The notes beneath the pieces are model-generated. The model made no database searches. It saw only the letters and a program-made list of their open reading frames with translations, and had not been told where the DNA came from. A stretch of DNA of 64,000 nucleotides. Source: Escherichia coli (GTDB lineage Bacteria; Pseudomonadota; Gammaproteobacteria; Enterobacterales; Enterobacteriaceae). The stretch lies in the NCBI RefSeq assembly GCF_017348835.2, contig NZ_CP071375.1. One strand, 5' to 3'. Positions 43,945 through 49,106 of this stretch are shown piece after piece (positions within the stretch are counted from its first letter, which is position 1; each line of letters starts with the position of its first letter). The translations under genes and the position numbers were made by a program.

Positions 43945-46835
<2,891 letters not shown>

Positions 46836-46844
46836 GCAACCGTG

Positions 46845-46924
46845 CCGGATGCGGCGTGAACGCCTTATCCGGCCTACATGTCGCACGAACTATGCAGGCC
46901 CGATAAGCACTGCGCATCGGGCAA
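46845..46924. repeat. REP/BIME element downstream of ascB, at the left edge of the accessory insertion
   Basis: gccggatgcggcgtgaacgccttatccggcctac plus a second, inverted, more degenerate unit. Confidence 0.7.
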
Positions 46925-46948
46925 TCTGGAGTTTGGCATCAGTCAAAA

Positions 46949-47368
46949 TCAAAGAAACCATTCCGGCTTAACGCCAAATCGGGCTGAAAGTGCCTTAATG
47001 TGGGATATTGTCAGGGATCGTTGTCCAGACAAAATCTGACTAACCAGGGATTTAGAGCCGATTTCGTTCTTCAAATCCGCATAGGTCAGATTATGTTGAT
47101 CAATCAACGTGCGAAGTAACGCCACGCCAACCGGCATTGCCGCAACGGCTTTGTCGAACTCTGCAAACTTTTCGTTGTTGTTTTCATACTCTGCAATGCG
47201 GCTCGCCAGAAAGTCGATAAGTGGATTGGTGTCATCTTCTTCAATCAAATATTCGACCAGTTCCAGTGCTTCACGATAATCATCTTCTGAGTCACTGCCT
47301 CCCAGAAAGGGGACTGCATTGACCAGTTCTCTTGTTGCTTTAACAGCGCGTGCAGCATTAGCAGTCAT
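46949..47368 (-). CDS. HigA-like antitoxin (XRE-type HTH at the C-terminus)
   Basis: 139-aa ORF resembling E. coli HigA (AVPFLGG...ALELVEYL...EFAEF...LLRTLIDQ...GSKSLVSQILSGQRSLT); overlaps the upstream toxin gene by 4 nt. Confidence 0.8.
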   Translation of the reverse strand: MTANAARAVKATRELVNAVPFLGGSDSEDDYREALELVEYLIEEDDTNPLIDFLASRIAEYENNNEKFAEFDKAVAAMPVGVALLRTLIDQHNLTYADLKNEIGSKSLVSQILSGQRSLTISHIKALSARFGVKPEWFL

Positions 47369-47676
47369 TCTTTGTTCTCTCTGTAGTAACGTGTCAGTTT
47401 GTCATACTCTGCGTGATTCGTTATGTGCTTCACAAAGAACCGCTTATTAACAAAGTTTATGTAGGCAATAACCCTAAGATTGTTCCCGCCGACATCCAGA
47501 ACGTACCATTTGTTGCGATATTTAAAATTGTCGAGGTTGGGAAACGCCGTTCGCATTTCTTCTGGCGTAGAAAAATCCGTTTCCTTAATAACCCGATACA
47601 ATGCCTGAAGAGCCAGAGCGTCGTTAGGATATTTACGCGCAGACTCTTCAAATGGCACTTTAGAAATGATGTGCAT
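47365..47676 (-). CDS. HigB-like mRNA interferase toxin (RelE/ParE superfamily)
   Basis: 103-aa ORF resembling E. coli HigB (MHIIS...KYP...FPNLDNFKY..K.YV.DVGGNNLRV...EYD); toxin-first order and 4-nt overlap with the antitoxin. Confidence 0.8.
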   Translation of the reverse strand: MHIISKVPFEESARKYPNDALALQALYRVIKETDFSTPEEMRTAFPNLDNFKYRNKWYVLDVGGNNLRVIAYINFVNKRFFVKHITNHAEYDKLTRYYRENKE

Positions 47677-47680
47677 TTTT

Positions 47681-47784
47681 AAGTTTTAACTTCCTTATAG
47701 TAAGTAAACAGCCACATCTGCGAGTTCTATCCTCATGTGTTCGGAAACTATAGCTCATCAAATCCAAGTTCACAATATGTAAAC
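47681..47784 (-). promoter_or_regulatory. Putative higBA-like promoter/operator region
   Basis: Minus-strand -35 ttgtga, 16-bp spacer, -10 tatagt; inverted repeats gttcaca-ata-tgtaaac (47768-47784) and aagtt-tt-aactt (47681-47692) overlap the -35 and RBS regions. Confidence 0.35.
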
Positions 47785-47837
47785 ACTTGCGCGTGATATA
47801 ATTACCCCCAAAATCCTCATAACCACTCTGCAAAAAG

Positions 47838-48611
47838 TCAGTTCTGATTCACCCCATCAAGCACATCCCCCTTTATCAAGCAACGCTGCGTCAGCGACAG
47901 ATCTTCCGTTTGTGTGTCGCGCCCGGCGATGGGTTTGAGGACGAGTTTACGGTTGGGGGTATAAGTAAAGCGCGTGAGCGCGGGATAGCTTAACTTGCCA
48001 AACCAGCCGTGAACACGCTGCCATTTGGCGTCTTTTACCTGATACAGACTGGTTATCCAGTAACCAGAATTAAACTGCATATCCAGCAATTGCGTGTGAC
48101 CATTGCCTTGTAAATCCAGCAAATCATCTACGCCAGTTTTGCTTGCAGTGTAGAATCCCCAGGGTTCAAAGACACAGGGACGGCCTTCGTGCGTGAACGT
48201 CATGAGGATTAAATGTGCATAGGGCGCCAGACCATTACCGGCACTTGGCAACCAGATAACCAGATCCTGAATGCCGTTACGATCCAGATCGGCGCGATAG
48301 AGCTGCCCTTTGCCCGCCATATTTGCCAGCAACCCCACTGGCACCGTCCAGGATTTACCCGCGCGGTCTTTAGCGGTTAATTGCCAGTAATCCTCTTCAT
48401 TTGGCATCTTCTCAAGCGTCACGCCAGCAACGCCGATTTTTCTAAAATGCCAAGTTTGCTCGGTATAATAAGGCATGGTCAGGAGAGGTTTCAGCGCCCG
48501 CTTTTGCGCATATTCGCTGCCACTCATTGGCAGATATTCGGTAAAGCTGGTGGCCTGTGCAGACTGCACTAAGCTCAATAAAAAAGCGCACATCCCTGTT
48601 CTGATGTTCAA
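47838..48611 (-). CDS. Exported protein of unknown function with Sec-type signal peptide and two DxDxNG-like repeat motifs
   Basis: 257-aa ORF; TTG start at 48611 or ATG at 48593; signal-like CAFLLSLVQSAQA; motifs ADLDRNGIQDLVIW and DLLDLQGNGHTQLLD; Trp-rich. Confidence 0.6.
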   Translation of the reverse strand: MNIRTGMCAFLLSLVQSAQATSFTEYLPMSGSEYAQKRALKPLLTMPYYTEQTWHFRKIGVAGVTLEKMPNEEDYWQLTAKDRAGKSWTVPVGLLANMAGKGQLYRADLDRNGIQDLVIWLPSAGNGLAPYAHLILMTFTHEGRPCVFEPWGFYTASKTGVDDLLDLQGNGHTQLLDMQFNSGYWITSLYQVKDAKWQRVHGWFGKLSYPALTRFTYTPNRKLVLKPIAGRDTQTEDLSLTQRCLIKGDVLDGVNQN

Positions 48612-48635
48612 TTCCCTGAATTCCCTGATGAAGAA

Positions 48636-49106
48636 TTATTCTTCTTCCACCGCTAACTGCGCAAATCCGCCGTTCCCTTCCCAGCCTTCCAGTCGTTGAT
48701 AAACGGTTTCTACCGCATCTTTAATCGGCTGGGTCATTGGGTAGTAAAAGCCGACGATATCCGGCTGGATGCCGAGAAAAATCACCTCGCCAATATCTTC
48801 TTTCAACTGGTCGATAAGATAGTTCAGCGGCATGTTATGGGTAGTCATCATAAACATTTCGGCGATATCATCCGGATCGATGATGCGGATCTCGCCGGGG
48901 TTTAGCCCCATATCCGTGGCGTCGACAATCAGCAGTCGTGTCGGGCGCAGTTCGCGGATAGCGACAATGTCGTTTTCCGGTGCGCTACCGCCGTCAATCA
49001 CCACCCAGTTGCCTTTCGGCGCGGCGGCGCACTTTTCCGCCAGCAGCGGACCTGCGCCATCATCGCCCATCATGCTATTGCCAACACAGAGTAAAACGTC
49101 AGTCAC
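48636..49106 (-). CDS. hycI: Hydrogenase 3 large-subunit maturation protease HycI
   Basis: 156-aa ORF recognised as HycI. Confidence 0.95.
   Translation of the reverse strand: MTDVLLCVGNSMMGDDGAGPLLAEKCAAAPKGNWVVIDGGSAPENDIVAIRELRPTRLLIVDATDMGLNPGEIRIIDPDDIAEMFMMTTHNMPLNYLIDQLKEDIGEVIFLGIQPDIVGFYYPMTQPIKDAVETVYQRLEGWEGNGGFAQLAVEEE

Follow-up and report, generated by a model that had tools for sequence, protein, structure and literature searches.

Genes between hycI and ascB

In this work we have examined a short tandem repeat downstream of hycI in a stretch of 64,000 nucleotides of Escherichia coli DNA, which we refer to as the window. The gene hycI (48636-49106, minus strand, according to both the ORF list and RefSeq) encodes the hydrogenase 3 maturation protease, and its TAA stop codon (48638-48636, minus strand) lies 24 nt before the TTG of an ORF of 257 amino acids encoding an uncharacterised exported protein (47838-48611, minus strand). 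Further along the same strand is a higB-higA toxin-antitoxin cassette (46939-47837), recognised by comparison with strain E69 and by HigB_toxin and HTH_3 Pfam matches. The whole segment 46700-48760 is matched at 100% by E. coli strain PE164. A REP-type element at 46830-46886 adjoins the 3' end of ascB and is the reason why about 32 places per genome were returned by megablast; its Rfam match to the REP-derived naRNA4 is sub-threshold, at 41.9 bits against a gathering score of 59.5. The end of hycI itself is somewhat variable. Its C-terminus is encoded by a GAA GAA GAA (Glu-Glu-Glu) run at 48639-48647 on the minus strand, of which the ST131/AZ161 allele has one GAA fewer, a trinucleotide-slippage polymorphism that gives a protein of 155 amino acids, and the stop codon is TAA in some alleles and TAG in others.

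Several structural classes of the ascB-hycI interval exist among 5,426 complete E. coli genomes, and we aligned representatives of each in the hyc sense. When species genomes were scanned, the first gene downstream of hycI was this ORF in E. whittamii, Escherichia sp. MOD1-EC7003, E. albertii and E69, a divergent E. coli; a cryptic Escherichia clade shows the same arrangement. In Salmonella the order on one strand is hycG-H-I, ORF, hydN, hypF, with a gap of 26 nt after hycI, and in Klebsiella spallanzanii the ORF is found between hycI and ascB. Orthologues were mapped to 2501-3310 of our loci L015 and L016 and to 2474-3226 of L013, the latter being the Klebsiella spallanzanii locus. In Escherichia, Salmonella and Klebsiella alike, the ORF is ancestral and is the next gene 3' of hycI. 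The distance between the two genes differs, with about 750 bp in Klebsiella spallanzanii (1727-2473 of its locus), which hold no ORF of at least 80 amino acids, versus 24-26 nt in Escherichia and Salmonella. The orthologue of the E. albertii type strain, NBRC 107761 (L014, 2501-3270), is apparently frameshifted, since tblastn matched it as two segments in different frames; intact 251-residue versions exist in E. albertii (P0006). We also came across E. coli-type hycI-ORF-higA-ascB sequence in a 1,647-bp contig labelled as a Collinsella sp. metagenome-assembled genome, which is almost certainly a binning contaminant.

The ORF is absent from K-12 by deletion. In K-12, SCU-171 and O157 the sequence after hycI reads ...TTAAGGAAT-CAGGACAGGGATGT-TCTTGATGGGGTGAAxCAGxxCTGA, in which the 5' end of the ORF is joined to its last ~30 nt via a GGGATGT microhomology; the 5' part, ACAGGGATGT, is fused to the 3' part, TCTTGATGGGGTGA (L001, positions 520-625, from K-12 DH5alpha; also L008 and L002). 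A separate deletion removed 16 nt (TCAGGGAATTGAAMAT) and with them the second 9-mer and the start codon. With 30-nt probes specific to the alleles, we found the remnant in 1,956 and 789 genomes, or about 2,745 of the 5,426. Judged by its two retained ORF ends, the hycI-ascB region of the K-12/O157 type is a deletion remnant and not an empty site.

Is there then any real insertion at this locus? E. coli E69 has hycI-ORF-ascB without higBA and thus provides an empty site for the cassette, on the basis of which we identify higBA as the real insertion, situated at the opposite end of the ORF from the 9-mers. The cassette is 899 bp long, begins directly after the ORF stop codon and is bounded by ACTGA direct repeats on the minus strand, the left copy at 47838-47842 including the TGA stop of the ORF and the right copy at 46939-46943 forming the distal higBA end. 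In Klebsiella a different toxin-antitoxin-like pair, apparently of the ParDE type as judged by eye, occupies the interval between the ORF and ascB, which suggests that the locus is an integration hotspot for toxin-antitoxin genes. In ST95 strains (APEC O1, N66) and one ST131 strain the ORF is truncated to 61 codons and stands beside higA, higB having been lost, so that an antitoxin-like HTH gene is left without its toxin in the ST95 and ST131 strains examined.

As for the product of the ORF, no Pfam or NCBIfam family was found for the protein of the window, and weak matches to FG-GAP_3 were seen in 4 of 14 homologues. Two conserved motifs, DLDRNGxQD and DDLLDLxxNG, can be seen in the homologue alignment. 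Beyond Escherichia, Salmonella and Klebsiella oxytoca/spallanzanii, the homologues extend only to a few distant metagenomic sequences. All homologues carry the name "hypothetical" or "Periplasmic or exported protein". The AlphaFold model is partly confident (mean pLDDT 57.6), and a Foldseek search with it against the PDB gave no significant neighbour (best E = 0.29). A literature search on hycI/ascB/higB and on the Salmonella locus tag STM2844 returned nothing relevant. The gene is possibly without a name or literature because K-12 has lost it, and it may represent a distal member of the hyc cluster that has escaped recognition.

The tandem 9-mer and the start of the ORF

On the plus strand, positions 48611-48619 and 48620-48628 both read ATTCCCTGA. 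The minus strand reads TCAGGGAAT TCAGGGAAT TG, and its context is hycI ...GAAGAAGAA TAA ttcttca TCAGGGAAT TCAGGGAAT TG AAC ATC AGA ACA GGG ATG TGC, so the repeat takes up the greater part of the 24-nt gap that separates the hycI stop from the TTG (48611-48609). We call the 9-mer that lies upstream in the mRNA copy 1 (UCAGGGAAU, 48620-48628, minus strand) and the start-proximal one copy 2 (UCAGGGAA plus the U of UUG, 48611-48619, minus strand); the final T of copy 2 is the first base of the TTG, and copy and start codon overlap by this 1 nt. TRF reported the repeat at 48610-48628 with period 9, 2.1 copies, 100% matches and a score of 38. The initial annotation had described a perfect tandem between the hycI stop and the ORF start with two AGGGA motifs on the minus strand ahead of TTG and ATG starts, and the sequence and TRF bear it out on all these points. 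No other perfect 9x2 tandem occurs in the 64-kb window, for which a first-order Markov simulation gave a chance expectation of 0.32 +/- 0.53; the excess over chance is modest. Adjacent pairs of 9-mers with at least 7/9 matches occur 77 times in the window and those with at least 8/9 matches 16 times. Matches of this order are what the site shows in the outgroups and in the most frequent E. coli allele, and such precursor states are therefore unremarkable.

The start of the ORF is annotated inconsistently in public records. RefSeq uses TTG (48609-48611) for the truncated ORF of APEC O1, N66 and ST131, and ATG (48591-48593) for the intact one, which then has 251 amino acids. In the comparative alignment the position of the TTG is occupied by TTG in E. 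coli, E. albertii and E. whittamii, by ATG in MOD1-EC7003 and P0015 and by GTG in Klebsiella and P0016, and because valid start codons interchange there we place the real initiation site at this position. The N-termini of the homologues (MKEIIW..., MKRIIW..., MRFIIG...) align with the MNIRTG... of the window ORF, and 20 residues precede a conserved T-S/G-F in all the homologues aligned; an A-x-A-like motif in front of it fits a signal peptide, the cleavage site of which is predicted to follow ...SAQA. In the 18 nt from TTG to ATG no indels are present, and the substitutions seen there (AGA, AGG, AAA) are all synonymous or conservative. A GGG directly abuts the ATG at 48593, for which the nearest well-placed Shine-Dalgarno-like motif is 20 nt away. 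The TTG, giving 257 amino acids, is the probable true start and has comparative support over the RefSeq ATG, which is probably an internal Met codon.

A Shine-Dalgarno sequence acts at its usual spacing from the start codon, and copy 2 is too close to it. The AGGGA of copy 1 occupies -15 to -11 and ends 10 nt before the TTG, within the usual range of about 5-13 nt, whereas in copy 2 the distance from the end of the GGGA is 1-2 nt to the TTG and about 20 nt to the ATG, outside this range for both. The position of copy 1 is kept in orthologues, with UAAGGA, UAAGGG, AAAGGA or GGAG at about -16 to -9 in Escherichia spp., Klebsiella, P0016 and P0015. We calculated duplex energies with the anti-Shine-Dalgarno sequence ACCUCCUUA of -6.1 kcal/mol for UAAGGA, -5.8 for UUAGGGA and -5.1 for CAGGGA, so each copy of the perfect allele is complementary to the 16S rRNA at -5.1 kcal/mol. 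Copy 1 is probably the Shine-Dalgarno element of the ORF, and copy 2 would be a purine-rich spacer. Neither a terminator nor a strong promoter was found on the minus strand between hycI and the ORF, so that an internal promoter or terminator was rejected for this interval, and since nothing of this kind separates the two genes, the ORF is likely to be co-transcribed with the hyc operon. A structured RNA element was rejected as well, as the folds of four alleles were no better than those of shuffled sequences (z -0.7 to +1.1) and no Rfam family was found at the hycI-ORF junction.

Alleles of the repeat and the origin of its identity

In all the ORF-bearing Escherichia loci that we examined, 24 nt separate the hycI stop from the start codon. 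Copy 2 is invariant among the sampled ORF-bearing alleles of E. coli, whereas copy 1 varies between lineages. Copy 1 is TTAAGGAAT in E. coli 4314, GTAAGGAAT in CFT073 and Nissle, TTAGGGAAT in ST131 and AZ161, and TCAGGGAAT in the window strain, O111:H8 and the ST95 strains APEC O1 and N66. Aligned at the start codon, E. albertii and E69 read cat TAAGGAAT TCAGGGAA TTG, E. whittamii reads cag TAAGGAAT ACAGGGAA TTG and MOD1-EC7003 reads ctt AAGGCAT TCAGGGAT ATG. In outgroups where hycI is followed by the ORF, the first motif is TTAAGGAAT, GTAAGGAAT or TTAAGGCAT and the second TCAGGGAA, ACAGGGAA or TCAGGGAT; all the Escherichia outgroups have a TTAAGGAAT-like and a TCAGGGAAT-like motif that match each other at 6-7 of 9 positions. 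The equivalent of copy 2 is ACAGGGAA in E. whittamii, TCAGGGAT in MOD1-EC7003 and CAGGGAA in Klebsiella. The pair of motifs is kept between Escherichia and Klebsiella, where the sequence reads UAAGGGAACAGGGAA-GUG, and for this reason the doublet may be constrained beyond what a single Shine-Dalgarno site would need.

We determined how common the alleles are with 30-nt megablast probes, for which an exact word of 28 nt was required; about 870 genomes were outside the reach of these probes. The commonest of the alleles in the 5,426 complete genomes is TTAGGGAAT, with 8/9 matches to copy 2 (750 genomes), and the TTAAGGAAT and GTAAGGAAT alleles are present in 388 and 341. The perfect pair was found in 329 of the 5,426, or in 329 of the approximately 1,808 that bear the 5' end of the ORF, and it differs from TTAGGGAAT by a single T>C.

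What, then, made the two 9-mers identical? We consider it very probable that the 18 bp serve the ancestral exported-protein gene as its translation-initiation region and that the perfect tandem is a coincidence of substitutions. Throughout the genus the region carries a pair of purine-rich motifs that resemble each other without being identical: UAAGGAAU, the probable Shine-Dalgarno element about 10 nt ahead of the TTG, and UCAGGGAA, which abuts the start codon. According to this model, in one allele family of E. coli an A>G change in the first motif would have given the very common TTAGGGAAT, and a subsequent T>C would have turned it into TCAGGGAAT, identical to the second motif, without any change of length. 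The identity between the motifs would thereby have risen from 7/9 to 8/9 and then to 9/9.

The initial annotation had offered the possibility of a duplicated ribosome-binding site that tunes translation of the ORF. Both AGGGA motifs would then recruit ribosomes, and in keeping with this each copy pairs with the anti-Shine-Dalgarno at about -5 kcal/mol and the motif pair is retained in both Escherichia and Klebsiella. The part of the suggestion that stands is copy 1, which is at the conserved Shine-Dalgarno position; copy 2, however, overlaps the start codon, and its GGGA is not at the usual distance from either TTG or ATG. Moreover, the derived copy 1 is predicted to pair less well than the ancestral UAAGGA, so that the perfect allele would bind slightly more weakly, by about 1 kcal/mol, with presumably a small effect on translation. 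The identity of the copies is limited to 329 of the ~1,808 genomes with the ORF 5' end, and among these are APEC O1 and N66, in which it precedes the ORF truncated to 61 codons, which argues against selection for tuning. We regard a doubled ribosome-binding site as unlikely.

Could the repeat nevertheless come from a genuine duplication or homogenisation, either an ancient and since diverged 9-bp slippage duplication or a recent templated mutation or gene conversion of copy 1, with copy 2 as the template? The motifs are adjacent and similar in all Escherichia, Klebsiella has AGGGAAC AGGGAAG, and every change that makes the repeat perfect sits in copy 1 and goes toward copy 2. A recent duplication of 9 bp is ruled out by the constant spacer: it is 24 nt throughout, no allele is longer by one unit, and therefore no 9 bp were added. 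Identical head-to-tail copies (100%) do occur, but only in the 329 genomes. An ancient duplication is unnecessary when adjacent 9-mers with 7/9 matches are found 77 times in the window, and the period is 7 nt in Klebsiella versus 9 in Escherichia, with a second motif that is degenerate in the homologue P0016 (AGAGAA) and in Salmonella. As to homogenisation, the intermediate TTAGGGAAT is the commonest allele, in 750 genomes, which fits stepwise substitution. Duplication or homogenisation is, in our opinion, a distinctly unlikely source of the identity.

A further reading concerns the RNA-binding regulator CsrA, whose SELEX consensus is RUACARGGAUGU with an invariant GGA and a preference for a hairpin loop (PMC2896534). 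Two copies of UCAGGGAAU followed 18 nt downstream by ACAGGGAUGU would form a candidate cluster of CsrA sites, through which CsrA would repress the ORF by covering the Shine-Dalgarno and the start codon. CAGGGA is present on the minus strand at 48622-48627, 48613-48618 and 48593-48598. Both copies match the CARGGA core of the consensus (PMC2896534), and GAACAGGGAUGU at 48602-48591 agrees with it at 11 of 12 positions. A cluster of three CARGGA in a span of 35 nt on the mRNA strand is rare, with 0.003 expected per window, and the predicted MFE fold places the GGAA of copy 2 in a tetraloop on a 4-bp stem. On the other hand, the match was noticed post hoc and two of its three sites are the repeat itself, which makes the figure partly circular; the ancestral allele has two CARGGA, for which 0.39 are expected. 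The folds are no more stable than shuffles, with the z values given above, and a Shine-Dalgarno-like sequence contains GGA by its nature. Escherichia and Klebsiella both retain two GGA motifs, but the third site is absent in Klebsiella, the second motif has no GGA in P0016 or Salmonella, and the Salmonella leader differs. It would be quite surprising if the GGA pair, extended to three CARGGA here, were a CsrA-type control of an unrecognised tenth gene of the formate-hydrogenlyase (hyc) cluster, one that K-12 has lost. If it were so, the perfect allele would alter the occupancy of the regulator rather than ribosome binding.

In the weakest reading, the 9-mers are a target-site duplication or another duplication from entry of the ORF (with or without higBA) after hycI; a short duplication left by an insertion event had been proposed by the initial annotation. 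This reading is extremely improbable and was rejected on the outgroup loci and the structure of the K-12 remnant. In its favour, the locus is structurally polymorphic, and the K-12-type strains without the ORF, the kind with which comparison had been advised, show a single 9-mer-like motif (TTAAGGAAT) after hycI. These genomes, however, do not represent empty sites but deletion remnants in which both ends of the ORF are kept, and their missing copy 2 and start codon went with the separate 16-nt deletion. The ORF itself is the neighbour of hycI in E. albertii, E. whittamii, MOD1-EC7003 and Salmonella, and in Klebsiella it is situated between hycI and ascB. The repeats also flank no segment: both are adjacent at the 5' end of the ORF, no TCAGGGAAT was found at its 3' end, and the true insertion, higBA, is about 775 bp away with ACTGA flanks of its own.

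The repeat is a lineage-specific, substitution-made coincidence in an ordinary ribosome-binding region. In itself it matters little, and the insertion-scar account can be dropped. The by-products, unsurprising as they are, should be useful for annotation: an ancestral gene after hycI, its remnant in K-12, the TTG start and the boundaries of higBA.

Comparison with known systems

The repeat resembles several known kinds of element, each in part. With a replication-slippage microduplication it shares a perfect head-to-tail unit of 9 bp, but there is no gain in length here relative to any related allele or outgroup. Like a target-site duplication, it is a short direct repeat at a locus polymorphic for presence and absence; its copies, however, are adjacent, loci in which the ancestral gene is "absent" hold a deletion remnant of it, and the candidate flanking repeat that does exist, ACTGA, belongs to the higBA cassette at 46939-47837. 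In common with CsrA-regulated multi-GGA leaders such as that of ColE7 cel (PMC2896534), several A/CARGGA motifs span the Shine-Dalgarno and start codon, one of them with 11/12 agreement to the SELEX consensus; unlike in those leaders, there is no significant hairpin presentation, and the motifs are only partly kept in orthologues. The remaining likeness is to the Shine-Dalgarno region of a distal gene in a polycistronic operon, in which a purine-rich motif complementary to the anti-Shine-Dalgarno lies about 10 nt before the start, after a gap from the preceding stop that is short (24 nt here), with its position kept in orthologues. What sets our locus apart from such regions is that the motif is an exact copy of the next 9 nt, that the start codon is TTG and that its annotation is inconsistent, with ATG in most RefSeq records.
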